From Alphaproteobacteria bacterium (lineage in GTDB: Bacteria; Pseudomonadota; Alphaproteobacteria; Micavibrionales; UBA2020), in NCBI GenBank assembly GCA_965279315.1, contig OZ257145.1, positions 73,759 to 137,758 of the forward strand: a DNA stretch of 64,000 bases, written 5' to 3'. Made by a program: the position numbers and the translations under genes. Numbering within the stretch: the first letter of the stretch is position 1; every line of letters begins with the position of its first letter. Below the pieces are notes generated by a model that saw only the letters and a list, made by a program, of their open reading frames with translations, ran no database searches and had not been told where the DNA came from. Shown here piece after piece: positions 32,666-48,053 of the stretch.

Positions 32666-32785
32666 TTAAATCTCCTGATAATCCAATAGGTTAAGCATGT
32701 ACTGCCCTGCGGGTACTATACCCGCCCCGAAAGGCCGTGGCAAGACGCGCAAATGAGGCATTTTTTTGCAAAAACAGGGAACCGC

Positions 32786-32824
32786 ATAAATTAAAACCGC
32801 CGGGTTTTTGAGGCCCGGCGGTTT
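32786..32824 (-). terminator. Rho-independent terminator of giant paralog 1
   Basis: Minus strand: AAACCGCCGGG, loop, CCCGGCGGTTT, then TTAATTTAT. Confidence 0.65.
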
Positions 32825-32847: not shown

Positions 32848-35800
32848 CTAGGTCTGGTAGCCGCGCTTGCCGGTGAGGCCTTTTTCCCATGGCAGGCGTT
32901 TGTATTTGGAGTTTTCCTGTTCCTTGAACTTGGCGGCCAGGAAGTCGTCCTGCTTGTCGGGGCTCATCTTGTTGTAGGCCACCTTGTCCTTGGCGTTCAG
33001 CCCGTCGATCGTGTTGCTCTTGTCGATCGCGGCCTGCTTGCGCTCGTCGGCCGTCATCACCTTGTCCTTGGCGTTCGACTTCATGTTGTCGGCGCGGCTT
33101 GCCAGCTGCGTGCGTTCGGCAGCCAGCGCATCCGCATCCTTGATCGGCACGTCGCCCTTCGGCTGCATCTGGCCGATGACGCGGGTTGCCGCGTACATGT
33201 TGCCGTCATGACCCTGGCCGAGCGAAGCGGAGACGCTGCGATCCGGCGAGCCGCCCATCCAGCGGATCAGGTTTTCCGGGAAGATGTCGAGCAGCTTGAA
33301 CGACGTGTTCGCCGCCGTGTACAGCGTGCCCAGGTAAATGACCGAATAACAGACCTTGGCAACCAGCGCCATGAAGTAGTTGTTCGACGAGATGACCGAG
33401 GACGCGCCTTGCGAGAAGGTCGTGTGGAAGAAGACCGCGAAGGTGTTGTAGATCAGCATGCCGGCGACAAAGCCCATCACCGTCAGCACGGGGCGCATCA
33501 GCACGTTCAGCCACATGATCCACGCCGTGCGCAGCTGCGGCTGCCCCGCCGTCAGGCCGTCACCGGTCGAGACCAGGTGCGCCAGCGCTGCGACCGGCAC
33601 CATCACCACCGCCTCGAACACCGACACCATCCAGGTCAGGACCGAGAAGGCGACGCGCAGGAACGGCAGCACGGGCAGGTAGAAGGAAATCATCAGGCCC
33701 GACACGATCATCGCGGTGCCGATGGTGGCGAATGCGTTGAGCAGCGACGAAACGGCCACACCGATGCCGAGCGAGAAGCCGAAGCCTTTCAGCGTCGAGA
33801 CAGCCTGGACCAGCGTCACGCCGCCCCACAGCAGGGCGCCCGTGCCCAGCACGCTATGGCCCGTATTGGCCAGCTGCGCGAGGGGGTAAGTGCCGGTCGC
33901 GGCCAGGTCGACCGCGCGGAAGATGAACGCGCCGCCATAGCTGGGCACGAAGAAGCGCGCGAGCGTCGCCGCGATGTTGTTGTCGCCGCCCGAGAGGTTC
34001 TTGAATGCCGACATCAGGTTTTTCAGGGATCCGCTGGAGCCCGTGTTGATGTCGCGGCCGCCGGTTGCCGCCGTGTTCAGGTTGCGGCCGGTGGTGCCGG
34101 GCGCCGTGGAGTTCGCCCACCATTTGTCGTAGCCGTCGAGCGCGCCGAGGACTTTTTCCTCGAGGCCCGAGATGCGGCACGAACGGCCGATGATTTTCGA
34201 CCCGATGCAGCGCAGCCAGCCCGAGCCGCCGGCGCCGATCCAGACGGAGCCCGGTTCAACGGTCGCGGTCGGCTGTTGCGCGCCTGCCATCAGGCTGTTC
34301 ATGTTGGTGATGTCCTGGTACCACATGCCCATGCCGGCCCAGCCGCGCGCATTCATCTGCGCTACCATCGGGCCGCCGATATAGGTCGTCAGCGCGGTTT
34401 TGCCGGGGCCTTCATAGGCGGTCATGATGTCGGTCTGCAGTTGGTTCGACATCGCCTGCTGTTCATCCATCGTGGGGTCGGTCGCGGCGGCGGCCGTCGT
34501 CGCCGCATCGCATTGCGGGATCGCGCCGACAGGGCTGGTGCCCGTGCCGCCGTCGGGGAATTTGCGCGCGACATAACGGCAGGCGAAGCGGCGGGCCATT
34601 TCAATGACCGTGCCGCCGGAACCCATCGCACTGGTCGCGCTGTCCTGCATCGCAGGCTCCAGCGCGCCGCGCATCGCGTTACGGAACGCGCGGGCGGCGA
34701 TCGTGAAGTTGGGGGCGGCGTTGTAATCCGTGCCGCTGACGATCGGGGTCGAGGTCGACATCGGGGTCGAGGGCACCATCGCCGACCATGCCAGGAACTT
34801 GTCCATGTCATCGGTCGTGGAGGCGGTCGAATAACTGATCGTGCCGCAGACGTTGGAGCCGGTGTTGTTGGTGTAGCGGTTCGTGATCGTGCCGAGGTTC
34901 GGCGTCACGTCCTGCACGCGGCGGATCACCTGGTCGGGCGGCAGGCCGCCTTGCGTCTGCTGCAGGTAGGTGTTGAACGCCACCTGGCAGACCATCACCT
35001 TGCCGATGCTGTTGACGAGCGAGGTCGCGTTATTGACGGCGAAGGGCGCCAGCAGGGACTGGTCGCCCACAACGCCCGCCACATATTGCGACCAGGCGCG
35101 CGTACCGAAGTTCGAGCCCCATTCGGCCAGTTTCATCACGGCATACTGGCCGGAGGAGAAGCCGGAGCCGAGGGGGAACAGCAGGCCGAGCGCGAACATC
35201 ACGCGGATCGGCGCCCAGACCATGTTATGGCGGCCGCCGCCGAACACGCCGGTTTTCGCGGTGTCGATGATGATGGAAACGATCATCCACAGCATCATGA
35301 CGCAGGCAATCGTGATGACGCCGGTGTTATACGCGCCCATCATGCCGGCAAGGGCGTTCTGCAGCGCGCCGCCGTTCGGCGTATCGGCTGCCGCCTGGCG
35401 CAGGATCTTGTCCAGCACCATCAGGCCGTAATCGGTCGAGATGTTGTTGTTCGCGACGCGACCGTCGAACAGGCCGCCCGCGCCCGTGATGGCGCCCACG
35501 TTGCCCATGTCGGTCTTGCCGGCGCCCGCGCCATAGGGGTTGCCCGGGTGGGTGAAGAACAGCTGCGCCTGCGCGACTTCGCCGACGCCCAGGAAGATGC
35601 GGGCGAAGAACGTGCCGAGCGTCGCGGTCAGCGTGACGATCATCATGACGACGACGGTGAACATGCCGTACTGGTACATGCCGGTGCGGCGCGTGGTGCG
35701 CAGGCGGAACCAGACATCGCCCATCATCTTGGTGAACTTGATATTGGGCACGCCTTCCGCGCCGTAGTTGACCGCGGGGTGGTCGTTCGGCAGCAGGGAT

Positions 35801-36144
35801 GCCTGCACCAGCACCTGCGCCATGATGCGCATGAACACAGGGTAAATATGGGAGAAGCCGCGGAAGCACAGGCTGAACTGCGGCAGGAACATGAACGCGG
35901 CAATGGCCGAGCCCTTGATGCGGAACGGCTTGCGTTTGCCTTCCGCGATCTCGCGCTTTTCAAGCGCGCGTTTTTCGGCATAGGGGCTGGCGGCTTTCTG
36001 GACGTCTGTCAGGCCGCGGCGGGCTGTCACGCGCTCGCCGGTTGCGAATCTCTCGACGGCGGCATCGGCCTTTTTGTCCTTGCGTAGCTCCGCGAGTGCG
36101 CGAAGACCGTCCGCAATTAAACCCTTATGCTTGGAATCGCTCAT
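32848..36144 (-). CDS. Giant polytopic membrane protein, paralog 1 of 4 (tentatively DotA/TraY-like or VirB6/TrbL-like; family unverified)
   Basis: 1098 aa from ATG 36144 (MSDSKHK). It shares these blocks with the other three: F(M/V)FLPQFxxCFxGFSH(I/L)YPxFMR, STDY(A/G)LMVLDKILRQ, GGGRHNMVW(A/T/V)PIRV(M/V/L)FALG, GQY(A/M)VMKLAEWGSN(F/L)G, (V/I)MVCQ, TNRYTNNT, RGWAGMGMWYQ, TNTYPLA, FYLP(V/A)LPF(L/I)RVAFxVLTW and LYTAANTSFKL. The CDS is certain; the function is not. Confidence 0.85.
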   Translation of the reverse strand: MSDSKHKGLIADGLRALAELRKDKKADAAVERFATGERVTARRGLTDVQKAASPYAEKRALEKREIAEGKRKPFRIKGSAIAAFMFLPQFSLCFRGFSHIYPVFMRIMAQVLVQASLLPNDHPAVNYGAEGVPNIKFTKMMGDVWFRLRTTRRTGMYQYGMFTVVVMMIVTLTATLGTFFARIFLGVGEVAQAQLFFTHPGNPYGAGAGKTDMGNVGAITGAGGLFDGRVANNNISTDYGLMVLDKILRQAAADTPNGGALQNALAGMMGAYNTGVITIACVMMLWMIVSIIIDTAKTGVFGGGRHNMVWAPIRVMFALGLLFPLGSGFSSGQYAVMKLAEWGSNFGTRAWSQYVAGVVGDQSLLAPFAVNNATSLVNSIGKVMVCQVAFNTYLQQTQGGLPPDQVIRRVQDVTPNLGTITNRYTNNTGSNVCGTISYSTASTTDDMDKFLAWSAMVPSTPMSTSTPIVSGTDYNAAPNFTIAARAFRNAMRGALEPAMQDSATSAMGSGGTVIEMARRFACRYVARKFPDGGTGTSPVGAIPQCDAATTAAAATDPTMDEQQAMSNQLQTDIMTAYEGPGKTALTTYIGGPMVAQMNARGWAGMGMWYQDITNMNSLMAGAQQPTATVEPGSVWIGAGGSGWLRCIGSKIIGRSCRISGLEEKVLGALDGYDKWWANSTAPGTTGRNLNTAATGGRDINTGSSGSLKNLMSAFKNLSGGDNNIAATLARFFVPSYGGAFIFRAVDLAATGTYPLAQLANTGHSVLGTGALLWGGVTLVQAVSTLKGFGFSLGIGVAVSSLLNAFATIGTAMIVSGLMISFYLPVLPFLRVAFSVLTWMVSVFEAVVMVPVAALAHLVSTGDGLTAGQPQLRTAWIMWLNVLMRPVLTVMGFVAGMLIYNTFAVFFHTTFSQGASSVISSNNYFMALVAKVCYSVIYLGTLYTAANTSFKLLDIFPENLIRWMGGSPDRSVSASLGQGHDGNMYAATRVIGQMQPKGDVPIKDADALAAERTQLASRADNMKSNAKDKVMTADERKQAAIDKSNTIDGLNAKDKVAYNKMSPDKQDDFLAAKFKEQENSKYKRLPWEKGLTGKRGYQT

Positions 36145-36194
36145 GGTTTTGCCCTGCAAATAAAGACCGGAACCTATAACAGGCTTATTCTTAA

Positions 36195-36223
36195 ATTGTA
36201 CGCCTTTTTCTTAAAACCGTCAA
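36195..36223 (-). promoter_or_regulatory. Sigma70-type promoter of paralog 1 (conserved cassette)
   Basis: Minus strand: TTGACG, GTTTTAAGAAAAAGGCG (17 nt), TACAAT. It sits inside a ~75-bp block repeated upstream of all four paralogs. Confidence 0.6.
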
Positions 36224-36322
36224 ATTTATGGACATTTATGCAAAATTTTACGGGACGGAATTGGCAAGTAATCTCATATAGTTAACAAAAACCTAACCTG
36301 CGGGGCCGCGATGCGCTTGCCC

Positions 36323-36356
36323 AAAAAAGACACCGCCGGACATGTGCCCGGCGGTG
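36323..36356 (-). terminator. Rho-independent terminator of giant paralog 2
   Basis: Minus strand: CACCGCCGG, 8-nt loop, CCGGCGGTG, then TCTTTTTTGG. Confidence 0.7.
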
Positions 36357-36385
36357 CGTTATCACTGTGGCCTGCGGGCGTCCGT

Positions 36386-39300
36386 TCAGATCTTGAACAG
36401 CTTGCCGGCCAGCGCTTCGTTTGCCTTGATCAGGTCGTTCAGCTTGCTTTCGCTTGCCGTGCCCTTGGCAACCAGCCCGCGCAGCACGCTTTCGGCGTAT
36501 TTCGCGTCCGAGAACTGCTCGCGCTTGGCGATATCGGCGTTTTTCCAGGCCGTGCGCTGTTCGGACGACATTTCGTTTTCAGCCGCACGGTCGCGCGATT
36601 CCACCAGCTTGCCATGCGCCAGCGCGACGGCCGCTTTTTCATCGCGGGTCATGAAGCCCCATTGCGTGTTGACGTCGGAGCCGGCGTTTTTCTCTTCCCA
36701 CATCGCTTGCGCGTAGCCGATCGTTTTCTTCGGCTCGCGGCTGGCTTCGTCCATCGCCGCGCCGTCAAGGCCCAGCTTGCTCAGCAGGTTCAGCTCGTCC
36801 TGCGCCTTCATATAGCCGAACATCGCCTCCGTGCCCGGTTTGCCCACGCCCGGCGCGAACAGTTCGGGATCTGTTTCGTAATAGCGGCGGATAAAGCTGT
36901 CCTTGTCCGCAGCCGACATACCGACATAGTTCACGGCATCGGCGCCCGACATCTGGTTTTCGATCTTCTGGCGCACGGCTGCGATCTGGGTTGCATTCAT
37001 CGCATCCATGCCGGAGCCGCCGCCGCCCGAAAGTGCGCCGTCAAGCGCGCTGTCCGAGATGCTTGCGCCGGCCAGCTGGCCGCGGCCCACCGACGGGCCA
37101 TCCAGTTCGCGGAAGTTCTGGTCGTTGTCCTTGTGTCCGCGCTGGCCGTGACCGGCCAGTTTTTCACCGAAATGGTAGCCGGAACCGCCCATATCCTTGC
37201 CGCCCTCGTTGCGGGAGAACCAGCGGCGCGGGTTCATGCTGGCATGCATATTCAGGCCGGCAAAGGTCGTGCCTGCGCCGCTGTAACCCGCCTTGCCAGT
37301 CGTGTTCAGGCTATAGCCGATGCCGCGCTCGAAGCCGAAGCGTTTGTATTTCTTGTTCTCCTGCTCCAGGAACTTGTGCTGCAGGAAGCGGTCCTTGTCG
37401 CCGGACGACATGTTGCCCATGCGGTCGCGTTCGTCCGCGGTCATGCGGGAACGGGCCAGCTGCATGTCCGACTGCTTGCGCGCAAGCTTGCTGTCGGTCA
37501 GCAGCTCGTCGCGGACGCCCATGGCCGCCGCACGCGACGCCACGCTGTTCGCGTTCTTGAGGTTGGTCAGGTCGTCGTCGGACTTGATCAGGTTGCGCAC
37601 GTTCCAGCCCGAAGACATCGGGATCGCCTGTTCCAGGTTCTTGATCAGTGTCGCACCGGCGAAGCCGAGGCCGCCGCCGATGTTGGAACGGCCGTCCAGC
37701 AGCGCGGTGTCCTGTTTCGCGCCCCATTCGCCGAGCCAGCGCATCAGGTGGTTGGGGAACACGTCCAGAAGCTTGAACGAGGTGTTCGCCGCCGCATACA
37801 GCGTGCCGAGATAAATGACCGAATACGCGACCTTGGCAAGGATCTGCATCGGGTACCAATGCGTCGACATCACCGATGCCGCGCCCTGTTCGAACGTCGT
37901 GTGGAAAAACACGGCGAAGGTCGAATAGCACAGCATGCCGGCAATGAAGCCGAACACGGTCAGGATCGGGCGCATGAAGACGTTGAACCACAGCGTCCAG
38001 GCCGTCCGCCCGTGGTTACCCATCAGGCCGGGCCCCATGGTGGAGAGGTGGGTCAGCGCCGCAACCGGCACCATCACGACCGCCTCGAACACCGAGGTCA
38101 GCCAGGTGAGAACGGAGAACGCGACGCGGATGAAGGGCAGCGCGGGCAGGTAGAAGGAAATCACGCAACCCGCCAGGATCATCATCGAGCCGACGGAGGC
38201 AAGCGCGCCCATCAGCGCGGAGAAGGCAAGGCCTTTACCGAGCGAGAAACCCGCGCCGTCAATCGTCGACACGGCCTGCAGGATCGAGACACCCGTCCAC
38301 AGCAGCGCGCCGATGCCCAGCACGCTATGGCCGGTATCCGACAATTGCGCCAGCGGATAGGTGTTGGTCGCGGACAGGTCGACCGCCTTGAACAGGAACA
38401 CGCCGGCAGCACGCGGGAAGATAAAGCGCGTCAGCACGGTCAGGATGCCGTTGTCGCCGATCGACACGTTGCCGATCCATGACAGGATCGAGCCGATGGA
38501 AGAGCCGACCGCAGGGTTCAGTTCCTGGTTGGAGGACGCGGCCGCCTGGCCGACCTTGCCGGGCGATCCCGAAAGGCCCGATACGCCCCACCAACGGTCA
38601 TATTCGTTCATGACCGAGAACACTTTGTCCTCGAGGCCGGAGATTTTGCACTGCTCGCCGGATTCGCTGGAGTCACCCGCGCAACGCTCCCAGCCCGCAC
38701 CGCCCGAGCCTGACCAAATCGAGCCGGGCTCGACCGTCGCCATGGGTTCCTGCGCCGTGTACTGCACGTTGTTCAGGTTCGCGATGTCCTGGTACCACAT
38801 GGCCATGCCGGCCCAGCCGCGGCTCGACATTTCGGTCATCATCGGGCTGGTCGCCGTGGTGCCGACGTAGTTGTTGAGCGCGCCGCGCCCGCCGCCCGTA
38901 TAGGCGGCCATCATCGCGGCCTGCATCGTGTTCAGCATGTTCTGGTGCGACGACGTGTCGGGGTCGGTCGCGGCGGCCGCTGCGCCTGCGCACATCGGGA
39001 TATCGGCCACGGGGTTGCCCGCACCGCCGCCGTCGCTGAAACGGCGGGAAACGAACTGGCACGCGAAAGTGCGCGCATCGTTCACGACAGAACCCGCGCC
39101 GACGCCGGTCGGGGTGTCGGCGAGGTCGGCGGAAAGCGCCCCGCGCATCGCGTCGCGGAAGCCCTTCACGGCGGTCGTCATGCCGACGTTTTTATAGTTG
39201 TTGTCGGGCGCGGTGCCGGTCGAGGTCGAGGCGGTCATCGCCGTGTTCGGCGTCGCCGTGCTCCAGTCGAGGAACTGGTTGTTGTCGTCCGGCGTCGCGG

Positions 39301-40549
39301 CCGTGGCGAACTTGATCGCGCCGCAGATGTTGTTGGCGGTGTTGTTGGTGTAGCGGTTGGTGATGTAAAGCTGGCTTTGCTGCGGCGTGCCGGGCGCGGC
39401 GCTCATGGCGTCCTGCTTCAGCTCGATCACCTGGTCGGGGTCAAGCGCGCCGGTGCGCTGCTGCAGGTAGGTGTTGTAGGCCGCCTGGCAGACCATGATC
39501 TTGTTGATCGATGTCACCACGTTGGTGTTGTTGTTGACGGTATAGGGCGACAGCAGCGTCTGGTTGCCGACGACGGAAGCGACATAGGTCGCCCAGCCGC
39601 GCGTGCCGAAGTTGGAGCCCCATTCCGCAAGCTTCACGACCATGTACTGGCCGCCCGAGAAGCCGGCGGAGCCCAGCGGGAACATGATGCCAAGCGCGAA
39701 CAGCACCCGGATCGGCACCCAGACCATGTTGTGGCGGCCGCCGCCGACGGTGCCGGTTTTCGCGGTGTCGATGATGACGGAAATGACCATCCAGCCGATC
39801 ATCAGGCAGGCGACGACGAGCATGCCGGAGTTATAGATCATCATCAGGCCGCCGAGCGCGTTTTGCAGCGCGCCGCCGGTCGGGTTGCTGGCCATGCCCT
39901 GGCGCAATACCTTGTCGAGCGCCATCAGCGCATAGTCGGTCGAGATGCCGTTGCCCTGCACGCGCAGGTCGAACAGGCCGGAGGATCCCGCGATCGTGCC
40001 GGCGGTCGCATCCAGTTCCGTCACGCCCTGCCCCTTCAGGTACGGGTCGCCGGGATGGCGGAAGGCCTCGAAAATCTGCGCCTGCGCAACGGCGCCCACG
40101 CCCAGGAAGATGCGCGCGAAGAACGCGCCCAGCGATGCGGTGAAGGCCATGATCATCATCATGACCGCGCCGAACATCGTCCATTGATAGGTGCTCGCGC
40201 GGTTGGTTTTCAGGCGGAACCACACCTCGCCCAGCAGCTTGCGGAAGCTGTAGGATTTTTTGGTGATGGCATCGGCCTCGAGCGCGGGGTGAGTCGCGGG
40301 AATCAGCGACACCTCGGCGAACATCGTCGCCATGGTGCGGATAAAGGCAGGGTAAAGGTGCGACATGCCTTCAAAACACATGCGGAATTGGGGCAGGAAG
40401 ACGAAGGCGGCGGTCGATTTCGCCTTGATGCGGGGAGCGCGCATGTTGTTCATCGCATCGCGGATGCGACGGGCCAGATAAGGGTTGACCTTGAGCTCTT
40501 CTTCGGCCGGAATGCCTTGATTAAGCTTAGGTTTGACCATGCGTTTCAT
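36386..40549 (-). CDS. Giant polytopic membrane protein, paralog 2 of 4, with a ~430-aa hydrophilic C-terminal extension
   Basis: 1387 aa from ATG 40549 (MKRMVKP); the start was chosen by analogy with the cGGGG..ccATG context of the other paralogs. Same conserved blocks. Long Lys/Asp/Glu/Met-rich tail. Confidence 0.85.
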   Translation of the reverse strand: MKRMVKPKLNQGIPAEEELKVNPYLARRIRDAMNNMRAPRIKAKSTAAFVFLPQFRMCFEGMSHLYPAFIRTMATMFAEVSLIPATHPALEADAITKKSYSFRKLLGEVWFRLKTNRASTYQWTMFGAVMMMIMAFTASLGAFFARIFLGVGAVAQAQIFEAFRHPGDPYLKGQGVTELDATAGTIAGSSGLFDLRVQGNGISTDYALMALDKVLRQGMASNPTGGALQNALGGLMMIYNSGMLVVACLMIGWMVISVIIDTAKTGTVGGGRHNMVWVPIRVLFALGIMFPLGSAGFSGGQYMVVKLAEWGSNFGTRGWATYVASVVGNQTLLSPYTVNNNTNVVTSINKIMVCQAAYNTYLQQRTGALDPDQVIELKQDAMSAAPGTPQQSQLYITNRYTNNTANNICGAIKFATAATPDDNNQFLDWSTATPNTAMTASTSTGTAPDNNYKNVGMTTAVKGFRDAMRGALSADLADTPTGVGAGSVVNDARTFACQFVSRRFSDGGGAGNPVADIPMCAGAAAAATDPDTSSHQNMLNTMQAAMMAAYTGGGRGALNNYVGTTATSPMMTEMSSRGWAGMAMWYQDIANLNNVQYTAQEPMATVEPGSIWSGSGGAGWERCAGDSSESGEQCKISGLEDKVFSVMNEYDRWWGVSGLSGSPGKVGQAAASSNQELNPAVGSSIGSILSWIGNVSIGDNGILTVLTRFIFPRAAGVFLFKAVDLSATNTYPLAQLSDTGHSVLGIGALLWTGVSILQAVSTIDGAGFSLGKGLAFSALMGALASVGSMMILAGCVISFYLPALPFIRVAFSVLTWLTSVFEAVVMVPVAALTHLSTMGPGLMGNHGRTAWTLWFNVFMRPILTVFGFIAGMLCYSTFAVFFHTTFEQGAASVMSTHWYPMQILAKVAYSVIYLGTLYAAANTSFKLLDVFPNHLMRWLGEWGAKQDTALLDGRSNIGGGLGFAGATLIKNLEQAIPMSSGWNVRNLIKSDDDLTNLKNANSVASRAAAMGVRDELLTDSKLARKQSDMQLARSRMTADERDRMGNMSSGDKDRFLQHKFLEQENKKYKRFGFERGIGYSLNTTGKAGYSGAGTTFAGLNMHASMNPRRWFSRNEGGKDMGGSGYHFGEKLAGHGQRGHKDNDQNFRELDGPSVGRGQLAGASISDSALDGALSGGGGSGMDAMNATQIAAVRQKIENQMSGADAVNYVGMSAADKDSFIRRYYETDPELFAPGVGKPGTEAMFGYMKAQDELNLLSKLGLDGAAMDEASREPKKTIGYAQAMWEEKNAGSDVNTQWGFMTRDEKAAVALAHGKLVESRDRAAENEMSSEQRTAWKNADIAKREQFSDAKYAESVLRGLVAKGTASESKLNDLIKANEALAGKLFKI

Positions 40550-40602
40550 GCGTGATGCCCCGAGAAAATAGTTCCACACACCTAAATCAGGCTTATTCCT
40601 TC

Positions 40603-40631
40603 ATTCTACGCCTTTTTCTTAAAACCGTCAA
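40603..40631 (-). promoter_or_regulatory. Sigma70-type promoter of paralog 2 (conserved cassette)
   Basis: Minus strand: TTGACG, GTTTTAAGAAAAAGGCG, TAGAAT. Confidence 0.6.
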
Positions 40632-40711
40632 ATTTACGGGCATTTATGCAAAATTTTACAGGTACATAAGTCCCTCAGGGGTTTTCCCCTGTTCCGGCGC
40701 CGCCCTGCCCC

Positions 40712-40746
40712 AAAAAGAAAACCGCCGGATCTTGCGACCCGGCGGT
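40712..40746 (-). terminator. Rho-independent terminator of giant paralog 3
   Basis: Minus strand: ACCGCCGG, loop, CCGGCGGT, then TTTCTTTTTGG. Confidence 0.7.
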
Positions 40747-40771
40747 GATTTCTTTGGCTGAAGCCAGGGCC

Positions 40772-43672
40772 TTAGGCCTTGTCGCCGCCGACTTTTTTGC
40801 CGCCGCCGCCGCCGCTCTTCATGTTGAAGTTGGGCTTCATCTGGCCGAGCAGCTGGGTACCGGCCAGCATCATGCCGTCGTTATGGTCGTCCATGCTATG
40901 GTCAGGCGAGCCGCCCATCCAGCGCATCAGGGCCGAGGGGAACATGTCCATCAGCTTGAACGAGGTGTTCGCAGCCGTGTACAGCGTGCCCAGATAGATG
41001 ACCGAATATGCCACTTGGCCGAGGATCATCATGATCGGGTTACCGTTCGAGGCCAATACCGCCGCCGAGCCCTGAGAGAAGGTCGTGTGGAAGTAAACCG
41101 CGAAGGTGTTGAAGATCAGCATCCCCGCCACGAAGCCGAACACGACCAGAATCGGGCGCATCAGCACGTTCAGCCAGAGAATCCATGCCGTGCGCGCACC
41201 GCCCGCCAGGCCGTCGCCTTCGGATGTCAGGTGGGCAAGCGCCGCGATCGGAACCATCACCACAGCCTCGAACACGGAGGTCATCCAGGTCAGGACCGCG
41301 AAAGCCACGCGCAGGAACGGCAGGACCGGAAGGTAGAAGGCAATCATCACGCCCGCCACCATCATGGTCATCGCAATCGTCGCAAGGCCGTTCGCAAGGG
41401 CCGACACCGCAAGACCGCCACCGCCGGAGAACGTCGCGATCTCCGCGCTCGACAGGATCTGCAGCACGGTCAGGAGGACCATGATGGTCGTCGCCGTGCC
41501 GATGATCGAGTAGCCGGTATCAGCCAGCGACGCGAGCGGATAGGTGTTGGTTGCAGCAAGGTCGACCGCCTTGAAGAGGAACATGTCGCCCGCACGCGGC
41601 CAGATTTTCGAGATGATCCAGTCAGCGATGCTCAAGTCGCCGGTTGCGAGGTTTTTCAGGAACGAGATCATCGACCAGAAACCGCCGCCACCCGAAGACG
41701 GGTTCAGGTCCGAGGTACGCTGCGCGGTGCCGTAGTCGGTACGGCCAGCCGAGCCGGGGCGGGACGCATCTGCCCACCAGCGGTCATAGTCGGCCATGAC
41801 GCCGACCACTTTTTCCTCGATATCGGGGTTTTTGCAGGCGCGGCCGAACAGTTTGCGGCCCGCGCATTTCATGGTGTTCCAGACGGACGACCAGAAGCCG
41901 CCTTTACCGGCGCCTTCCCACAGCGTGCCGGGTTCGACCGTCGCCGTCGGCTCGCGCGCCGATTGCAGCAGGCCGTTCAGCGACGCGATGTCCTGGTACC
42001 ACATGCCCATGCCGGCCCAGCCGCGGGCCTTCATTTCGTTCATCATGTCGCCGCCGCGGATATAGCCCATCAGGTCGGCTTTCGCGGAACCTGCAGCGCC
42101 GTCGGGGGCCACGCCGCCGTCATAGACCTGATTGATCGCCTGCATCAGCGCATCCAGTTCCTGCTGGGGCTGTGCTGCGTTCGGGTCGTTGGCGGGGGTC
42201 GCCATCGCGGCGCAGTTGTTGTAGCCGCCAGTCATCAGGCCGACCGGGTTGTTGGGCGTGCCGGGGTTGCCGTAGCGGCGCGCCACGAAATCGCAGGCGA
42301 AGGTACGCGCGGTCTGGATGATCGGGCCGCCCGAGCCGGTGGCGCCGTTCAGCGAGGTTTCATTCAGCTGGTTCTGCAGCGCGCCCATCATCTTGTTGCG
42401 GAAGCCCGCAACGGCGGTCGCCATCGTGGCTTTGTAGTTGGTGTAGGTCGCGCGGTTCGCGTTGGCGGCGGCGGTCGACGCGGCGTCCATCGGGGTGGTG
42501 GTGGTGGCGTTGGCCAGCATCAGGTCAACGTCTTCCGTGCCTGCGTTCGCGCTGGTCCCGTAAGTGATCGTGCCGCAGACGTTGGGGTCGGTGTCGTTGG
42601 TGTAGCGGTTGGTGACCCAGCCGGTGCGGTTGGTCAGATCCTGTTTAATGCGGATGACCTGGCGCGGGTCCATGCCGCCGGTCGATTGCTGCAGGTAGGT
42701 GTTGAACGCGACCTGGCAGACCATCACCTTGTTGATGCCGGCGACGAGCGAGGTTGCGTTGGCGGCGGAGAAAGGCGACAGCAGCGACTGGTCGCCGACG
42801 ACGCCGTTCACATAGGTGAGCCAGCCGGTGGAGCCGAAGTTGGAGCCCCATTCCGCCAGCTTCATCACGGCATACTGGCCGGAGGAGAAACCCTGGTTGC
42901 CGAGCGGGATCATGATGCCCAGCGCGAAGACGACGCGGATCGGGGTCCAGACCATGTTGTGGCGGCCGCCGCCGAAGAGGCCGGTTTTCGCCGAATCAAC
43001 GACGATCGACAGCACCATCCAGAACAGCATCGCGCCTGCGACCAGCAGGACGCCCGAGTTGTAGACCTGCATCAGGCCCGCCAGCGCGTTTTGCAGCGCG
43101 CCGCCGTTGCCGGGGACGCCGGTTGCCGCCTGACGGAGAATTTTGTCGAGGACCATGAGCGCGTAGTCGGTCGAGATGCCCGAACCGTTGACGCGGGAAT
43201 CGAACAGGCCTGCAGCGCCCGTGATGCCGGCGGTACCGCCGGAAATATCCGTCAGGCCGGTGCCGTAGGGGTCGCCGGGATGCGCAAAGATCTGCGCCTG
43301 CGCCACTTCGCCAAGGCCGAAGAAAATGCGCGCGAAGAACGTGCCGATGGCGGCCGCCAGCGTCACCATCATCATGATGATCCCGCCGAACATGCCGTAC
43401 TGGAAGGTGGTGGCGCGCGTCGTGCGCAATGTGAACCATGCCTCGCCGAAGAGGTCGCGAATCTGCGTGTTGGGCACACCCTGCGCGCCGTAGTTCAGCG
43501 CCGGATGGTCATCGGGCAAAAGTTTTGCCTGCACGAACATGAGGGCAAGGACCCGCATGAACACCGGATAAATGTGGGAGAAACCCTGGAAGCACATCCG
43601 GAACTGCGGCATGAACATAAAGGCCGCGACATTTGTTCCCTTGATGCGGTTCGATTCTCTGGCGTCGCTCAT
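40772..43672 (-). CDS. Giant polytopic membrane protein, paralog 3 of 4, with a Gly/Lys-rich tail
   Basis: 966 aa from ATG 43672 (MSDARES). Same conserved blocks. C-terminus SGGGGGKKVGGDKA. Confidence 0.85.
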   Translation of the reverse strand: MSDARESNRIKGTNVAAFMFMPQFRMCFQGFSHIYPVFMRVLALMFVQAKLLPDDHPALNYGAQGVPNTQIRDLFGEAWFTLRTTRATTFQYGMFGGIIMMMVTLAAAIGTFFARIFFGLGEVAQAQIFAHPGDPYGTGLTDISGGTAGITGAAGLFDSRVNGSGISTDYALMVLDKILRQAATGVPGNGGALQNALAGLMQVYNSGVLLVAGAMLFWMVLSIVVDSAKTGLFGGGRHNMVWTPIRVVFALGIMIPLGNQGFSSGQYAVMKLAEWGSNFGSTGWLTYVNGVVGDQSLLSPFSAANATSLVAGINKVMVCQVAFNTYLQQSTGGMDPRQVIRIKQDLTNRTGWVTNRYTNDTDPNVCGTITYGTSANAGTEDVDLMLANATTTTPMDAASTAAANANRATYTNYKATMATAVAGFRNKMMGALQNQLNETSLNGATGSGGPIIQTARTFACDFVARRYGNPGTPNNPVGLMTGGYNNCAAMATPANDPNAAQPQQELDALMQAINQVYDGGVAPDGAAGSAKADLMGYIRGGDMMNEMKARGWAGMGMWYQDIASLNGLLQSAREPTATVEPGTLWEGAGKGGFWSSVWNTMKCAGRKLFGRACKNPDIEEKVVGVMADYDRWWADASRPGSAGRTDYGTAQRTSDLNPSSGGGGFWSMISFLKNLATGDLSIADWIISKIWPRAGDMFLFKAVDLAATNTYPLASLADTGYSIIGTATTIMVLLTVLQILSSAEIATFSGGGGLAVSALANGLATIAMTMMVAGVMIAFYLPVLPFLRVAFAVLTWMTSVFEAVVMVPIAALAHLTSEGDGLAGGARTAWILWLNVLMRPILVVFGFVAGMLIFNTFAVYFHTTFSQGSAAVLASNGNPIMMILGQVAYSVIYLGTLYTAANTSFKLMDMFPSALMRWMGGSPDHSMDDHNDGMMLAGTQLLGQMKPNFNMKSGGGGGKKVGGDKA

Positions 43673-43726
43673 GGTTAAAACCCCGACAAAAACAGACACA
43701 CACACCTAAATCAGGCTTATTCTTTC

Positions 43727-43755
43727 ATGATACGCCTTTTTCCTAAAACCGTCAA
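43727..43755 (-). promoter_or_regulatory. Sigma70-type promoter of paralog 3 (conserved cassette)
   Basis: Minus strand: TTGACG, GTTTTAGGAAAAAGGCG, TATCAT. Confidence 0.6.
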
Positions 43756-43819
43756 ATTTACATGAATTTATGCAAAATTGTACGGGTGTAAAAAAGCCAA
43801 GCGGCACAAGGGGATCTGC

Positions 43820-43859
43820 GAAAAGAGAACCGCCGGACACCCTTTCGGCGCCGGCGGTT
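43820..43859 (-). terminator. Rho-independent terminator of giant paralog 4
   Basis: Minus strand: AACCGCCGG, loop, CCGGCGGTT, then CTCTTTTCG. Confidence 0.6.
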
Positions 43860-43910
43860 TGCAATTTATTTTCAGTCCATCCGGCTTTATGTCGCGCGCC
43901 GTAGCTGCGG

Positions 43911-46900
43911 TCAGGCTTTTCCGCCTGCGCCGCCCTTGCCCGACTGTCCGCCGGAGCCGGCACCCATGCCGAGTCCCCCGCCGCCTTTGCCGCCGGGAGC
44001 GCCCGGCGCGCCACCGCCGCCACCCACATCCGCAGCTTTCGTGCCGCCGGGGGTTGCATCGGGGTCGCCGGCTTTTTTGCCGCCGTACTGGAACTTGGGC
44101 GCCATGCCCTCCATCATCTTCGCAGCTGTCAGCATGTTGCCGTCGCTATGGTCGTCCATGCTGTGGTCAGGCGAGCCGCCCATCCAGCGCATCAACGCGT
44201 TCGGGATCACGTCCATCAGCTTGAAGGACGTGTTCGCCGCCGTATACAGCGTGCCCAGATAGATGATCGAATAGGTCACTTGCGCGATCATCGCGGTAAA
44301 GATGTTGTGGGTCGCAATCAGCGTCGACGCGCCCTGGCTGAAGGTGGTGTGGAAATAGGTCGCAAAGGCGTTGAAGATCAGCATGCCGCCCACGAAGCCG
44401 AACACGACCAGCACCGGGCGCATCAGCACGTTGAGCCACAGGATCCACGCGGTTCGCGCACCGCCGGCCAGGCCTTCGCCTTCGGTGCCAAGGTGCGTCA
44501 GCGCCGCGATCGGCACCATCAGCACCGCCTCGAACACCGACGTCATCCAGGTCAGCACCGCGAATGCGACGCGCAGGAACGGCAGCACGGGCAGGTAGAA
44601 GGCGATCATCACGCCCGCCACCAGCATTGTGGTGGAAATGGTCGACAGCACGTTCGCAACGGCGGACGCGGCGAAACCGATACCGCCCGACACCGTGAAC
44701 AGCTTGCCCGCCGTCAGGATCTGGATGATCGTGAGACCCGACAGGATGCTGAGCGAGGTGTAGATGATGCGGTGGCCGGCATCCGTCAGCGTCGCCAGCG
44801 GATAGGTGTTGGTGGCCGCCGTATCGACGGCGCTGAAGATAAAGCTGTCGCTGGCGCGCGGCCAGATGCGTTCGGCAACCCAGTTCAGGATGCCGGAGCC
44901 GCCGCCGAAGGCGACCGATTTGATGAACGAGATCACGGTGCGCAGGCCGCCGCCCGACGATGACGGCGTCACGTCCTGCGTGCGTTGCGCGCCGCCCATG
45001 GTGCCGAGCGGGGTGTTGGCGGGTGCGCCGGGGCGCGACGCGCTTGCCCACCAGGCGTCATACTCGCCAAGGATGGATGCGGCTTTTTCCTCGATCTCGG
45101 GGCTCTTGCAGGGGCGGCCGACGATGCGGCGGCCTGCGCATTTCAGGTTGCTCCAGAAGCCGCCTTTCGTTGCGCCTTCCCACAGCGTGCCGGGCTCGAC
45201 CGTTGCGGTCGGTTCGCGTGCGCCCGCCACTTGCGCGTTCAGCGCGGCGATTTTCTGGTACCACATGCCCATGCCGGCCCAGCCGCGACGCTGCATTTCC
45301 TTGATCATGCCGTTCGGGCCGGTGATGTAGGCCATCAGCGCGTCTTTCGCAAACGGGCCGCCGCCGCAGCCGGGGCTGGTGGGCGAAATGGGTGCGGAGC
45401 CGTCATATGTGCAGCGGATCGCGTCCATCATCATGCCGACCTGGCGCTGGGGGATAGAGGCGTCGGGGTCTGCCGCGGGCGCAACCGTGCCGCCGGGGCA
45501 GGCCGCATAGGGCGCGGACAGCAGGCCGACGGGGTTCGGCGTCGTGGTTTCCCAGCGGCGCGCAACGAAGGGGCAGGCCAGCTGGCGGGCGAGCGTGACA
45601 ACCGTGCCGCCGCCGGTGCCGGAACCGGTGTCAGCCGCGATGTCCATGTTTTCCGTCAGCAGGGGCTGCAATGCGCCCATCATGCGCTGGCGGAAATCCG
45701 CAAGGCGGTCGGCGAATTCCTGGTCGTAGTTGGTGTACATCGTACGGTTCGCGGCGTTCGCGGCAAGCGCGGCCGAGGCCGGGTCCATCGGCGACGAAAC
45801 GCCGGTGTTCGCCATCGCGGCGCCCACGTCCGAGTTCACGCCGTTGTCAAAGCCATAAGTGATCGTGCCGCAAATGTTGGCATCGGTGTTGTTCGTGTAG
45901 CGGTTCGCGACCCAGCCCACGCGGTTGGTCGTGTCCTGCTTCACGCGGATGACCTGCTGCGCATCGAGCCCGCCGGTGATGTTCTGCAGCGCCGAGTTGA
46001 ACGCGATCTGGCAGACCATGACCTTGTTCACGCCCGCCGCGATCGAGGTCGCGTTGTGGACGGAGAACGGCGCCAGCAGGCTCTGGTCGCCGACCACGCC
46101 CGCGATATACTGCACCCAGCCCTTGGTGCCAAGGTTGGAGCCCCATTCGGCCAGCTTCATGACCATGTACTGGCCGGAGGAGAAACCCTGCGCGCCGAGC
46201 GGGAAAATGATGCCGAGCGCGAAAACCATGCGGATCGGGGCCCAGACCATGTTGTGGCGGCCGCCGCCCAGCTTGCCGGTGCGCGCGGTGGAAACCACGA
46301 TCGACATGATCATCCAAAGGGTCACGACGCCCGCGATCAGCGTCATGCCGGTGTTATAAACGCGCATCAGGTCGACCAGCGCGTTTTGCAGCACGCCGCC
46401 GTTACCGACGGGCGCGGTCGCCGCCTGGCGCAGGATTTTGTCGAAAACCATCAGGGCGTAGTCGGTCGACACGCTCGCGTCGTTCACGCGGGTGTCGAAC
46501 AGGCCGCCGGGCGCTGTAATCGTGCTGGTACCGCCCGTGATCGCCGTTTCGCCGGGGCCGCCGGAGCAGCCGCCATAGGGGTTGCAAGGGTGTTCCAGCA
46601 CGCGCGGCAGGAACAGCTGCGCCTGCACGGCATTGCCGACCCCGAACACCACGCGCAGGAAGAACGAGCCGACCGCCAGCACCATCATCATGATCATCAG
46701 CACGACACCCGTGAACATCGACCACTGGTGCGCGCTGGAACGCGTGACGCGCAGCGTGAACCAAGCCGTGCCGAACAGGTCGAAAATATGGGTGTTGGGA
46801 ATCTCTTTCGCGCCGTAATTCAGCGCGTTATGCGACGAGGGGATCAGCTTCGCTTCGGCAAAAACCTGCGCAAGGCAACGCATGAAGACGGGGAAAAGAT

Positions 46901-46997
46901 GCGCAAACCCCGTAAAACACATGCGGAACTGCGGCATGAACAGAAACCTCGCGATGGAAGTTTTCTGACCAGAGTTGTAATCATCGGCATGGCTCAT
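43911..46997 (-). CDS. Giant polytopic membrane protein, paralog 4 of 4, with a long Gly-rich tail
   Basis: 1028 aa from ATG 46997 (MSHADDY). Same conserved blocks. C-terminus GGGGGAPGAPGGKGGGGLGMGAGSGGQSGKGGAGGKA. Confidence 0.85.
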   Translation of the reverse strand: MSHADDYNSGQKTSIARFLFMPQFRMCFTGFAHLFPVFMRCLAQVFAEAKLIPSSHNALNYGAKEIPNTHIFDLFGTAWFTLRVTRSSAHQWSMFTGVVLMIMMMVLAVGSFFLRVVFGVGNAVQAQLFLPRVLEHPCNPYGGCSGGPGETAITGGTSTITAPGGLFDTRVNDASVSTDYALMVFDKILRQAATAPVGNGGVLQNALVDLMRVYNTGMTLIAGVVTLWMIMSIVVSTARTGKLGGGRHNMVWAPIRMVFALGIIFPLGAQGFSSGQYMVMKLAEWGSNLGTKGWVQYIAGVVGDQSLLAPFSVHNATSIAAGVNKVMVCQIAFNSALQNITGGLDAQQVIRVKQDTTNRVGWVANRYTNNTDANICGTITYGFDNGVNSDVGAAMANTGVSSPMDPASAALAANAANRTMYTNYDQEFADRLADFRQRMMGALQPLLTENMDIAADTGSGTGGGTVVTLARQLACPFVARRWETTTPNPVGLLSAPYAACPGGTVAPAADPDASIPQRQVGMMMDAIRCTYDGSAPISPTSPGCGGGPFAKDALMAYITGPNGMIKEMQRRGWAGMGMWYQKIAALNAQVAGAREPTATVEPGTLWEGATKGGFWSNLKCAGRRIVGRPCKSPEIEEKAASILGEYDAWWASASRPGAPANTPLGTMGGAQRTQDVTPSSSGGGLRTVISFIKSVAFGGGSGILNWVAERIWPRASDSFIFSAVDTAATNTYPLATLTDAGHRIIYTSLSILSGLTIIQILTAGKLFTVSGGIGFAASAVANVLSTISTTMLVAGVMIAFYLPVLPFLRVAFAVLTWMTSVFEAVLMVPIAALTHLGTEGEGLAGGARTAWILWLNVLMRPVLVVFGFVGGMLIFNAFATYFHTTFSQGASTLIATHNIFTAMIAQVTYSIIYLGTLYTAANTSFKLMDVIPNALMRWMGGSPDHSMDDHSDGNMLTAAKMMEGMAPKFQYGGKKAGDPDATPGGTKAADVGGGGGAPGAPGGKGGGGLGMGAGSGGQSGKGGAGGKA

Positions 46998-47048
46998 GGC
47001 TTTGCCCCGGCAAATATAGGATGAACCGCCTTATTCAGGCTTATTCAT

Positions 47049-47077
47049 CCATGATACCCCTTTTTCTTAAAACCGTC
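47049..47077 (-). promoter_or_regulatory. Sigma70-type promoter of paralog 4 (conserved cassette)
   Basis: Minus strand: TTGACG, GTTTTAAGAAAAAGGGG, TATCAT. Confidence 0.6.
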
Positions 47078-47168
47078 AAAATTAAGGCATATTTATGCCA
47101 AATTTTAGGCAGCGGCGAAGAAGGGACTGATGGTGAATCATACCATTGATTGCATTAAGGAATATTTA

Positions 47169-48053
47169 CTATTCCCATTTCAGCGCCGACATTAAATATG
47201 TAGGCCTGTAGGGATAGGTTTTGAGGAATTCCCCGGTGCCGTGCAGGCTCGGAACGCCCGTTCCGGAAACAGGGAAGGCGTCGCGGTGGATTCCCGAGGT
47301 GATCAGGATGGAATCGAGTCCCGCCCCCGTCGCCCCCTCGATATCCGTCTGCATCCCGTCGCCGATGCACAGGACGCGCTGCACCCCCATCCCCTGCAGG
47401 CAGAGGGTATAGACCCCGCGATGCGGCTTGCCGAAATAGGTGACCGCCCCGCCCGCCGCCGCATAGGTATCGGCGAAGGTGCCGGGGCAGATGACCAGCT
47501 TGTCCCCCACATGCACAATCCGGTCGGGATTCGCGCAGAGCATGGGGAGGCTGGATTTCAGGCAGGCGTCCAGCACCGGCTGGTACATTTCCGCCGTGTC
47601 GTCGAAATCGTTGACGCCGCTGTTGAGCACGAAATCGGCCTCCGACGGTTTGGCGACAATCTCGATATCGAGTCCTTCATAGAGGCTGCCGTCCTTGTCG
47701 CCGGGGCCCAGGTGGTAGCAGCGCCTGCCCCATTCCTTGAGGTATTTTTCTTTCAATGCCATCCATGTCGCCTCGCCGGACGTCATGATGCCGTCATAGA
47801 GTTCGGGCCCGATGCCCATTTCCGTCAGCTTGCCCGCCACGACATGCGCGCGGCGCGGCGCGTTCGACAGCATCCAGACGATGCGCCGCGCATCCTTCAG
47901 CGCGCGCAAGGTCTCGACCGTTTTCGCGTAAGGCTTCAGCCCGTCATGCACCACGCCCCACAGGTCGAGGATAAAGCCGTCGTAATTGTTCACGATTTCA
48001 TACAGGCCGGGCAGCAGTTTCAGCCGGTCGTTCGCGGGCTTCACGATCATCAT
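47169..48053 (-). CDS. HAD-superfamily hydrolase (subfamily IIA-like)
   Basis: DLWGVVHDG nucleophile motif, SNAPR and GDGMQTDI motifs. 294 aa. Confidence 0.75.
   Translation of the reverse strand: MMIVKPANDRLKLLPGLYEIVNNYDGFILDLWGVVHDGLKPYAKTVETLRALKDARRIVWMLSNAPRRAHVVAGKLTEMGIGPELYDGIMTSGEATWMALKEKYLKEWGRRCYHLGPGDKDGSLYEGLDIEIVAKPSEADFVLNSGVNDFDDTAEMYQPVLDACLKSSLPMLCANPDRIVHVGDKLVICPGTFADTYAAAGGAVTYFGKPHRGVYTLCLQGMGVQRVLCIGDGMQTDIEGATGAGLDSILITSGIHRDAFPVSGTGVPSLHGTGEFLKTYPYRPTYLMSALKWE

Follow-up and report, generated by a model that had tools for sequence, protein, structure and literature searches.

Results

The DotA/TraY Gene Array

The window considered here is a 64,000-nt stretch of contig OZ257145.1 from an alphaproteobacterium of the order Micavibrionales, whose 3.3-Mb genome is assembled in one contig and looks complete. 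Four adjacent genes on the minus strand of the window encode proteins of the DotA/TraY family (type IVB secretion), 966–1387 amino acids (aa) in length. Each gene is preceded by a non-coding block of about 72 bp with promoter-like features and followed by a predicted terminator, so that the unit of block, gene, and terminator is repeated four times between conserved genes for a HAD hydrolase and a solute-binding protein. The repeated blocks and hairpins had been described in an earlier note on this DNA. The coordinates of the predicted elements are as follows.

32848..36144, minus strand: coding sequence of paralog 1; 1098 aa from ATG; DotA/TraY family
36386..40549, minus strand: coding sequence of paralog 2; 1387 aa from ATG; DotA/TraY family; long C-terminal extension
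40772..43672, minus strand: coding sequence of paralog 3; 966 aa from the conserved ATG; DotA/TraY family
43911..46997, minus strand: coding sequence of paralog 4; 1028 aa; DotA/TraY family
36180..36250, minus strand: promoter block of paralog 1; −35 at 36223–36218, −10 TACAAT at 36200–36195
40588..40658, minus strand: promoter block of paralog 2; −35 at 40631–40626, −10 TAGAAT at 40608–40603
43712..43783, minus strand: promoter block of paralog 3; −35 at 43755–43750, −10 TATCAT at 43732–43727
47036..47107, minus strand: promoter block of paralog 4; −35 TTGACG at 47079–47074, −10 TATCAT at 47056–47051
32786..32822, minus strand: terminator of paralog 1; −22.6 kcal/mol; stem flanked by an A-tract upstream and a U-tract downstream
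36323..36357, minus strand: terminator of paralog 2; −26.4 kcal/mol
40711..40746, minus strand: terminator of paralog 3; −30.7 kcal/mol
43820..43858, minus strand: terminator of paralog 4; −24.9 kcal/mol; ACCGCCGG..CCGGCGGT stem and U-rich tail

The four proteins are members of the DotA/TraY family, not Legionella-type equivalogs: paralogs 1–4 score 228, 228, 201, and 211 bits, respectively, with the whole-protein NCBIfam model TIGR04346 (curated cut-off 100 bits), and 128–156 bits with the type IVB DotA equivalog model NF033886, below its cut-off of 500 bits. In addition, paralog 1 has a match to the DotA chain in PDB 9ngy (E 3e-16); no Pfam domains were found in any of the four proteins. For paralog 3, the list of open reading frames (ORFs) begins at an in-frame GTG (43705) and not at the conserved ATG.

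Anatomy of the Promoter Block

According to the alignment of the four intergenic regions, the block reads TAAAATTTTGCATAAAT-N9/10-TTGACGGTTTTAAGAAAAAGGCGTAnnAT-N4-GAATAAGCCTG on the coding strand, with 56 out of 72 columns invariant and pairwise identity of 82–90%; all four copies lie within the ranges where the earlier note had placed a block of about 75 bp. A scan with the promoter consensus finds TTGACG-17-TA(C/G/T)(A/C)AT in every copy, with 10 out of 12 positions agreeing with the consensus, while the number of promoter-like sites in the region is seven vs. 3.6 ± 1.8 expected from shuffled sequences. The 17-bp spacer is itself conserved, as the same note had proposed, with 15 out of 17 positions invariant, and both flanking segments that it had singled out, the beginning of the leader (GAATAAGCCTG) and the upstream A/T-rich element (TTKGCATAAAT), are present in four out of four copies. 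In the block of paralog 4, for example, the upstream element is TAAAATTTGGCATAAAT, followed by the conserved spacer and by GAATAAGCCTG at approximately +1 to +12. One caveat of the earlier note was that the similarity could be limited to A/T runs; this is not so, because it includes the specific G/C-containing segments TTGACGG, GGCGTA, and AAGCCTG. A/T tracts are repeated with a period of about 10 bp over the whole block, and a candidate UP element, TAAAATTTTGCATAAATGTCCATAAAT, is located at approximately −62 to −36; only AAAATTTT in it fits the UP consensus, in the distal half only.

A broader alignment took in 21 diverged copies, orthologues as well as paralogs, with the −35 box as the anchor. 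In it, TTGAC of the −35 box is invariant, and T1, A2, and T6 of the −10 box are fixed, with positions 3–5 free (TACAAT, TAGAAT, TATCAT, TATGAT, TAAGAT, TATTAT, TAGACT, and others). Sigma-70 is known to read TTGAC of the −35 box and positions 1, 2, and 6 of the −10 box. As the fixed bases of the −10 box are exactly those read by sigma-70, this pattern speaks for a functional promoter. The spacer (consensus gTtTTa.gAAAaaggcg) is better preserved than the interior of the −10 box and contains a TTTT-N3-AAAA dyad, whose arms are fuller in some relatives, e.g., GTTTTAGGAAAAC and ATTTTATCGAAAAT. The upstream element TAAAATTTT-NC-ATAAAT is nearly invariant and is followed by a weaker (A/G/C)TAAAT motif abutting the −35 box; downstream, (A)AGAATAAGCCTGA spans approximately +1 to +12.

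A separate feature of the block (36180–36223 and the equivalent positions of the other copies) is an 11-nt direct repeat formed by AAGAAAAAGGC in the spacer and AAGAATAAGCC in the start region, 20 bp apart and flanking the −10 box. It may be due to chance or constitute a two-site operator.

Conservation of the Block, the Coding Regions, and a Control Promoter

The paralogs are 46–62% identical at the amino acid level and 60–71% at the nucleotide level of the coding regions, with 59–67% identity at four-fold degenerate sites. In gap-free coding windows of 75 nt, positions invariant in all four copies account for 50% on average and 77% at most, compared to 78% in the block. Hence, the block is conserved to the same degree as the most conserved of the coding windows and far more strongly than synonymous sites, and the earlier statement that the non-coding parts are more conserved than much of the coding sequence holds for the block. 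In orthologous intergenic comparisons, the block is 82–99% identical, and the DNA just upstream of it is at the level of shuffled sequences in more distant pairs.

Bacterial promoters normally retain only their two hexamers. As a control, we considered the promoter of the downstream gene encoding a family-5 solute-binding protein, which is syntenic in G001, G010, G009, and G005 (here and below, G numbers denote genomes, L numbers, loci, and C numbers, contigs):

32715..32743, minus strand: control promoter of the solute-binding-protein gene; TTGCCA-17-TATAGT, ordinary

In a 74-nt window of block size, this promoter is 53–57% identical to close relatives and about 35% identical to more distant ones, keeping only CTTGC and TATAGT. 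In the same genome pairs, the identity of the dotA block is 92–99% (close) and 82–88% (more distant). As the control promoter has diverged normally, the extended conservation is specific to dotA.

The ribosomal RNA (rRNA) promoters of the genome provide another comparison. Two promoter-like sites in tandem, TTGACT-17-TATAAC and TTGACC-17-TAGATT, lie upstream of the single 16S rRNA gene (G000:C1:2040658-2041158), both with an A-rich stretch before them; their spacers are G/C-rich and unrelated to the spacer of the dotA block.

Age of the Block and the History of Duplications

A DotA homologue was found in 41 out of 41 genomes sampled across the order. Within the family to which the studied genome belongs (the focal family), the promoter core precedes dotA in 31 out of 42 genomes, with the reversed-pattern control yielding zero, and the number of block copies equals the number of dotA copies: three or four where there are three or four genes, and one where there is one. 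A 25-nt string comprising the −35 box and the spacer is letter-identical in genomes from at least three genera. In five genomes with a single dotA gene (G022, G014, G002, G006, G013), the block is 79–86% identical to the four copies of the window over 72 nt, whereas the respective DotA proteins are only 36–46% identical to the window paralogs. A recognizable version of the block, AAAATTTTAGATAAAT-TTGACGATTTTATCGAAAATGACT-TATAAT, precedes dotA in a second family (G031). At this locus (L029, about 1300–1350), the AAAATTTTAGATAAAT element directly abuts the −35 box; in the focal family, a 10-bp tandem repeat CATAAATGTC/CATAAATTTG pushes this element upstream by one helical turn.

The protein tree groups sequences from several species into one clade per paralog, with the topology ((P3,P4),(P1,P2)), and those of single-copy genomes branch outside. 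Three copies are present in G005 and in G009, including one of an undivided P3/P4 type. Promoter variants follow the same pattern. Paralog 4 is marked across species by a 1-nt insertion, TTTGGCAT, and GGGG, paralog 3 by TACAATTTT and an AGG spacer, and TAGAAT and TACAAT mark the promoters of paralogs 2 and 1, respectively. As these paralog-specific variants are stable, the copies have not been homogenized continuously. Across species, proteins and promoter variants alike cluster by paralog and not by genome, and thus no concerted evolution is seen in the coding regions (protein tree) or, with the exception of one tract, in the promoters.

This tract is found in two relatives only, G010 and G012, at about 11982–12080 of L035 and about 4278 of L041, respectively. 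The paralog-1 promoter there reads TATCATGAAAG..GAT(T/A)TAGG, which is the paralog-3 state, whereas G000, G007, G001, G011, G009, and G005 have TACAAT. Five to six changes, all to the paralog-3 state, are concentrated within 22 nt (−10 to +15), and none is observed in approximately 190 nt of the flanking DNA; judging from this pattern, the tract of about 22 nt or more is a short gene-conversion patch.

Taken together, the comparisons indicate that the block predates the duplications and has been maintained by purifying selection, continuous gene conversion not being the cause of its conservation. Since the block and the CCGCCGG-stem terminator are already found with the single-copy orthologues of other genera, whole transcription units, as had been suggested earlier, were duplicated from one ancestral unit consisting of the block, dotA, and the terminator.

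In one relative, G011 (L039, contig C186, 10735–13763), an intact block is followed by a paralog-1 orthologue broken into two ORFs (517 and 634 aa), which is probably a frameshifted pseudogene or an assembly error.

Leaders and Terminators

Counted from the predicted transcription start, the leaders are 47–60 nt long and diverge fast after +12, retaining a U-rich stretch and CGGGG 6–8 nt before the ATG. In paralog 4, for example, the leader spans 47044–46998 (about 47 nt), with CGGGG about 7 nt before the ATG. The start context cGGGG..ccATG, previously ascribed to every copy, is present in three, and paralog 1 has CAGGGC in its place. The leader RNA element that had been considered as one form of shared regulation is not supported: on folding, the leaders are no more stable than dinucleotide shuffles (z = 0.0, +0.8, −0.4, −1.0), and a search of Rfam 15 yields no match in blocks or leaders, the sole match being one terminator against an unrelated small RNA (sRNA) model at 31 bits vs. 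the gathering threshold of 97. The only recurrent structure is a hairpin of 4–6 bp, RCCU-loop-AGGY, at a distance of 4–5 nt from the predicted 5′ end. Depending on the lineage, it is closed by a G-U, G-C, or A-U pair; the changes are single-sided and amount to about two events. This hairpin could act as a weakly supported 5′-terminal stabilizer.

The hairpin with a T-tract reported after every paralog is confirmed by predicted folding: all four terminators are ACCGCCGG-loop-CCGGCGGT hairpins of 8–12 bp with U-rich tails, located 12–52 nt past the stop codons, with energies of −22.6 to −30.7 kcal/mol. The stems occupy 32822–32796, 36355–36332, 40746–40721, and 43858–43829 for paralogs 1 to 4, respectively. 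The 8-bp stem pair occurs at six loci genome-wide, four of which are those described here, which rules out a generic terminator stem. A CCGCCGG..CCGGCGG stem is also found behind dotA in single-copy genomes G022, G014, G002, and G018, and the stem, like the block, is ancestral. In the paralog-2 orthologue of G001 (L036), both arms have changed in a compensatory manner, AGCGCCGG..CCGGCGCT replacing ACCGCCGG..CCGGCGGT, in line with selection acting on the RNA hairpin.

Search for Other Copies of the Block

The earlier note had suggested defining a regulon by searching the genome for further copies of the block; the search returned only the four sites of the array. The 25-nt core with at most three mismatches has exactly four occurrences in the 3.3-Mb genome (zero for the reversed pattern), and a whole-genome nhmmer search with the block profile yields the same four sites with E-values from 1e-19 to 1e-22, the next match having an E-value of 0.8, so that there is no fifth copy. 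Similarly, the pattern scan of 42 genomes reveals no regulon, as it retrieves dotA-linked copies only.

Several look-alikes and other explanations were considered and rejected. The upstream-element look-alike TAAATTTGGCATAAAT at G000:C1:884260 (plus strand) lies 36 nt before a 149-aa ORF resembling, by eye, ankyrin-repeat proteins, but its spacing is unlike that of the dotA promoters and it is probably due to chance; two others, at G000:C1:1052539 and G000:C1:63252, have wrong spacing or no plausible downstream gene. A mobile element or REP-like repeat does not account for a block that has four copies only, is always located before dotA, and matches the dotA genes one to one in 31 genomes. Visual inspection excluded a sigma-54 promoter (GG/GC spacing off by one, and the motif present in paralog 4 only) and FNR/FixK, IHF, and GANTC methylation sites, none of which fits all copies. 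The CtrA box TTAA-N7-TTAA, as read from the sequences, is absent, the TTAA motifs of the block being at least 11 nt apart and none having the N7 spacing. Two short reading frames were dismissed as well: the mini-ORF ATG-AAA-GAA-TAA, also noticed by eye, simply results where a G comes after TATCAT, is missing from paralog 1, and precedes the predicted start, and a frame of 12 codons on the other strand of the block lacks conservation.

Genomic Context

The neighbors of the array encode a HAD hydrolase, an EAL-domain protein, PyrD, and a solute-binding protein. The conserved upstream neighbors, at 47169–49369 of the window, are the genes for the HAD-family hydrolase and the membrane-anchored EAL-domain protein; the linkage of the HAD gene with dotA is seen in the relative G017 as well. 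Other type IVB genes are located about 800 kb from the array, outside the window, at G000:C1:919388-932350. This set comprises genes for DotH/IcmK, two DotI/IcmL proteins, a TraQ-like protein, and a 1006-aa ORF, which has no NCBIfam match but contains, by eye, a Walker A motif (GGGKS) and has the look of a VirB4/IcmB-type ATPase; they are interleaved with genes for ankyrin-repeat proteins ending in Lys/Pro-rich tails. Thus, the dotA array is unlinked from its machine but not orphaned. In the literature searched, we found no paper joining Micavibrio and DotA, and a broader literature search returned nothing specific to this locus.

Discussion

Proposed Organization of the Array

Based on the sequence comparisons, we consider it probable that the array consists of four monocistronic units derived from one ancestral unit, each driven by an extended sigma-70 promoter that has long been under purifying selection and likely serves as a factor-binding platform as well. 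Each DotA/TraY paralog would then be an independent transcription unit, and the ~72-bp block, an extended promoter of the housekeeping sigma factor (RpoD, sigma-70 type), comprising a phased, A/T-rich UP-like element at approximately −62 to −36, TTGACG, a 17-bp spacer, and TAnnAT. Transcription is predicted to start about 7 nt past the −10 box, at an A or G near positions 36188, 40596, 43720, and 47044 of the minus strand, with the conserved AAUAAGCCUG forming the 5′ end of the 47–60-nt leader; this end may fold into the tiny terminal hairpin of 4–6 bp, and the leader would close with the CGGGG ribosome-binding context ahead of the ATG. Transcription would stop at the strong intrinsic terminator of the unit, insulating it from the next one. 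Purifying selection predating the duplications keeps the block, with rare short conversion patches superimposed on it.

Since the spacer (GTTTTAAGAAAAAGGCG), the upstream element, and the positions from +1 to +12 are conserved far beyond the needs of RNA polymerase, the block is most likely also a binding platform of a DNA-binding factor. Such a factor, acting at an operator or activator site overlapping the promoter, would gate the production of DotA and act at dotA genes only. Possible binding features are the TTTT-N3-AAAA dyad of the spacer or the AAGAAAAAGGC / AAGAATAAGCC direct repeat flanking the −10 box. More tentatively, and with a probability that we would place below even, the block may be a private docking platform of a dedicated regulator that switches on all DotA variants together, e.g., upon contact with prey or host.

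Several observations weigh against a factor-binding role. No second target was found in the genome by the nhmmer block profile, by scans with degenerate sub-motifs, or by fuzzy scans with the spacer, leader, and upstream element, so that the factor postulated here would have targets of one kind only; there is no regulator gene among the four neighbors of the array; the spacer or the upstream element has diverged in G019, G017, and G018 though the −35 and −10 boxes persist; and phased A/T tracts alone, via DNA curvature or UP-element function, might explain a part of the extra conservation. Hence, of the shared regulation suggested in the earlier note, the conservation extending well beyond the hexamers speaks for it, but neither a regulator nor a regulon has turned up.

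The main rival explanation, which we regard as rather unlikely, is that the block is a very strong constitutive promoter served by RNA polymerase alone, without a dedicated regulator. The upstream A/T tracts would then be an UP element, the T4/A5 spacer and the A/T-rich start would tune curvature, open-complex stability, and promoter escape, and selection for a very high DotA output would keep the footprint of RNA polymerase (−60 to +12) nearly fixed. This agrees with the extent of the conserved span, which is that of the footprint, with the A/T tracts occurring about every 10 bp, with the A-rich DNA upstream of the rRNA promoters of the same genome, and with the failure of the searches to reveal a regulon or a linked regulator. 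It is harder to reconcile with the spacer, where RNA polymerase makes few base-specific contacts and yet the 25-nt string is letter-identical in at least three genera, and with the rRNA and neighboring control promoters, which neither conserve nor share their spacers. An improbable alternative is that the conserved segment is a cis-acting element of the leader RNA, that is, a riboswitch-like or a protein- or sRNA-binding element of the 5′ untranslated region, rather than a promoter acting at the DNA level. Although GAATAAGCCTG is located at the predicted 5′ end of the mRNA and the small RCCU-loop-AGGY hairpin recurs with a closing pair varying by lineage, about 60 out of 72 conserved nucleotides are upstream of the predicted transcription start, whole leaders are no more stable than shuffles and match no Rfam family above the threshold, the closing-pair changes are single-sided, and the rest of the leader diverges quickly.

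That the blocks are alike mainly due to ongoing gene conversion among four direct repeats, and not due to selection, was one of the causes considered previously and now seems very unlikely. In its favor, the repeats are 72 bp long, 82–90% identical, and directly oriented, and one clear short tract with the paralog-3 sequence has been observed in the paralog-1 promoters of G010 and G012, from −10 to +15. However, the single-copy genomes, lacking a donor, conserve the block equally well, which already largely refutes this explanation; moreover, the diagnostic variants of paralogs 3 (TACAATTTT with the AGG spacer) and 4 (the 1-nt insertion with TTTGGCAT) are stable across species, and the coding regions do not evolve in concert. 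We assign an equally low probability to the possibility that the boxes are unused and all four genes belong to one polycistronic message starting from a promoter upstream of paralog 4. Tandem dotA genes in two other families of the order (L042, L043) are indeed packed operon-style without internal promoters, but here every junction consists of a hairpin of −22.6 to −30.7 kcal/mol with a U-rich tail, followed by a promoter matching 10 out of 12 consensus positions, and the −10 hexamers vary as predicted for selection on a functional sigma-70 promoter.

Comparison With Known Systems

In rrnB P1 of Escherichia coli, the UP element (consensus AAAWWTWTTTTNNNAAA) occupies positions −59 to −38 and is contacted by the C-terminal domains of the alpha subunits. 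The dotA block resembles promoters of this type in having near-consensus hexamers, the optimal 17-bp spacer, and phased A/T-rich DNA at approximately −62 to −36, and the rRNA promoters of the studied genome have the same general layout, TTGAC(T/C)-17-TAnnnn with A-rich DNA upstream. Unlike in these promoters, the spacer and the positions from +1 to +12 of the dotA block are letter-conserved across genera, which UP-type promoters do not require; the discriminator is A/T-rich and not G/C-rich as in rRNA promoters, and the match to the UP consensus is partial, being restricted to AAAATTTT.

In Legionella pneumophila, icmV-dotA and other icm/dot promoters are controlled by the response regulators CpxR and PmrA, and the enterobacterial CpxR box is GTAAA-N5-GTAAA. 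The likeness consists in dedicated transcriptional control of a type IVB DotA gene, as proposed for the array. Furthermore, the direct repeat CATAAAT-N3-4-(A/G/C)TAAAT, which has a period of about 10 bp and abuts the −35 box, loosely resembles a tandem site of the OmpR/PhoB family, but its second half-site is poorly conserved (TAAAT, TTAAT, ATAAT, ATAGT). In addition, dotA of Legionella, a member of a different class, is the single-copy second gene of an operon, as opposed to four units here.

Tandem paralogs are also known for rvh/virB6 of Rickettsiales and for the Trw locus of Bartonella, with its copies of trwL and trwJIH; these arrays have been described as parts of operons transcribed together, with concerted evolution of the Trw copies. 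Similarly to these systems, tandem amplification and divergence have affected a single component of a type IV machine, one spanning the envelope or lying at the surface, with the rest of the machine being single-copy and encoded elsewhere. The differences are that every dotA copy has a private predicted promoter and terminator, that the paralog lineages are stable, and that DotA belongs to the type IVB (I-type) lineage and not to VirB. Closer relatives yield another contrast. L042 (G035:C16:67500-79500) and L043 (G029:C6:297500-308000), from other families of the order, contain three adjacent DotA/TraY paralogs each, of about 870–1080 aa, whose junctions are 10–30 nt long or overlapping and have neither the promoter block nor the terminator. 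These arrays look like independent expansions. As both elements are missing from their junctions, the cassette organization is a property of the ancestral unit of the focal family and not of DotA arrays in general.

Implications

An UP-element-type sigma-70 promoter and an intrinsic terminator are elements of known kinds. The novelty lies in a promoter block whose conservation across genera exceeds that of its gene and which has been passed on faithfully to every one of the three to four DotA paralogs. A non-coding segment of about 72 bp thus outlasts the protein encoded behind it (79–86% identity for DNA vs. about 40% for protein) and survives three rounds of duplication unchanged, marking dotA as an unusually tightly controlled gene in an uncultured alphaproteobacterial lineage. 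The four paralogs appear to be wired for independent, near-identical transcription, which bears on whether they act together or as alternatives. The block may serve as a bait in the search for whatever controls the type IVB machine of this lineage and, if a dedicated regulator indeed docks on it, would be a handle for the master switch of this machine.

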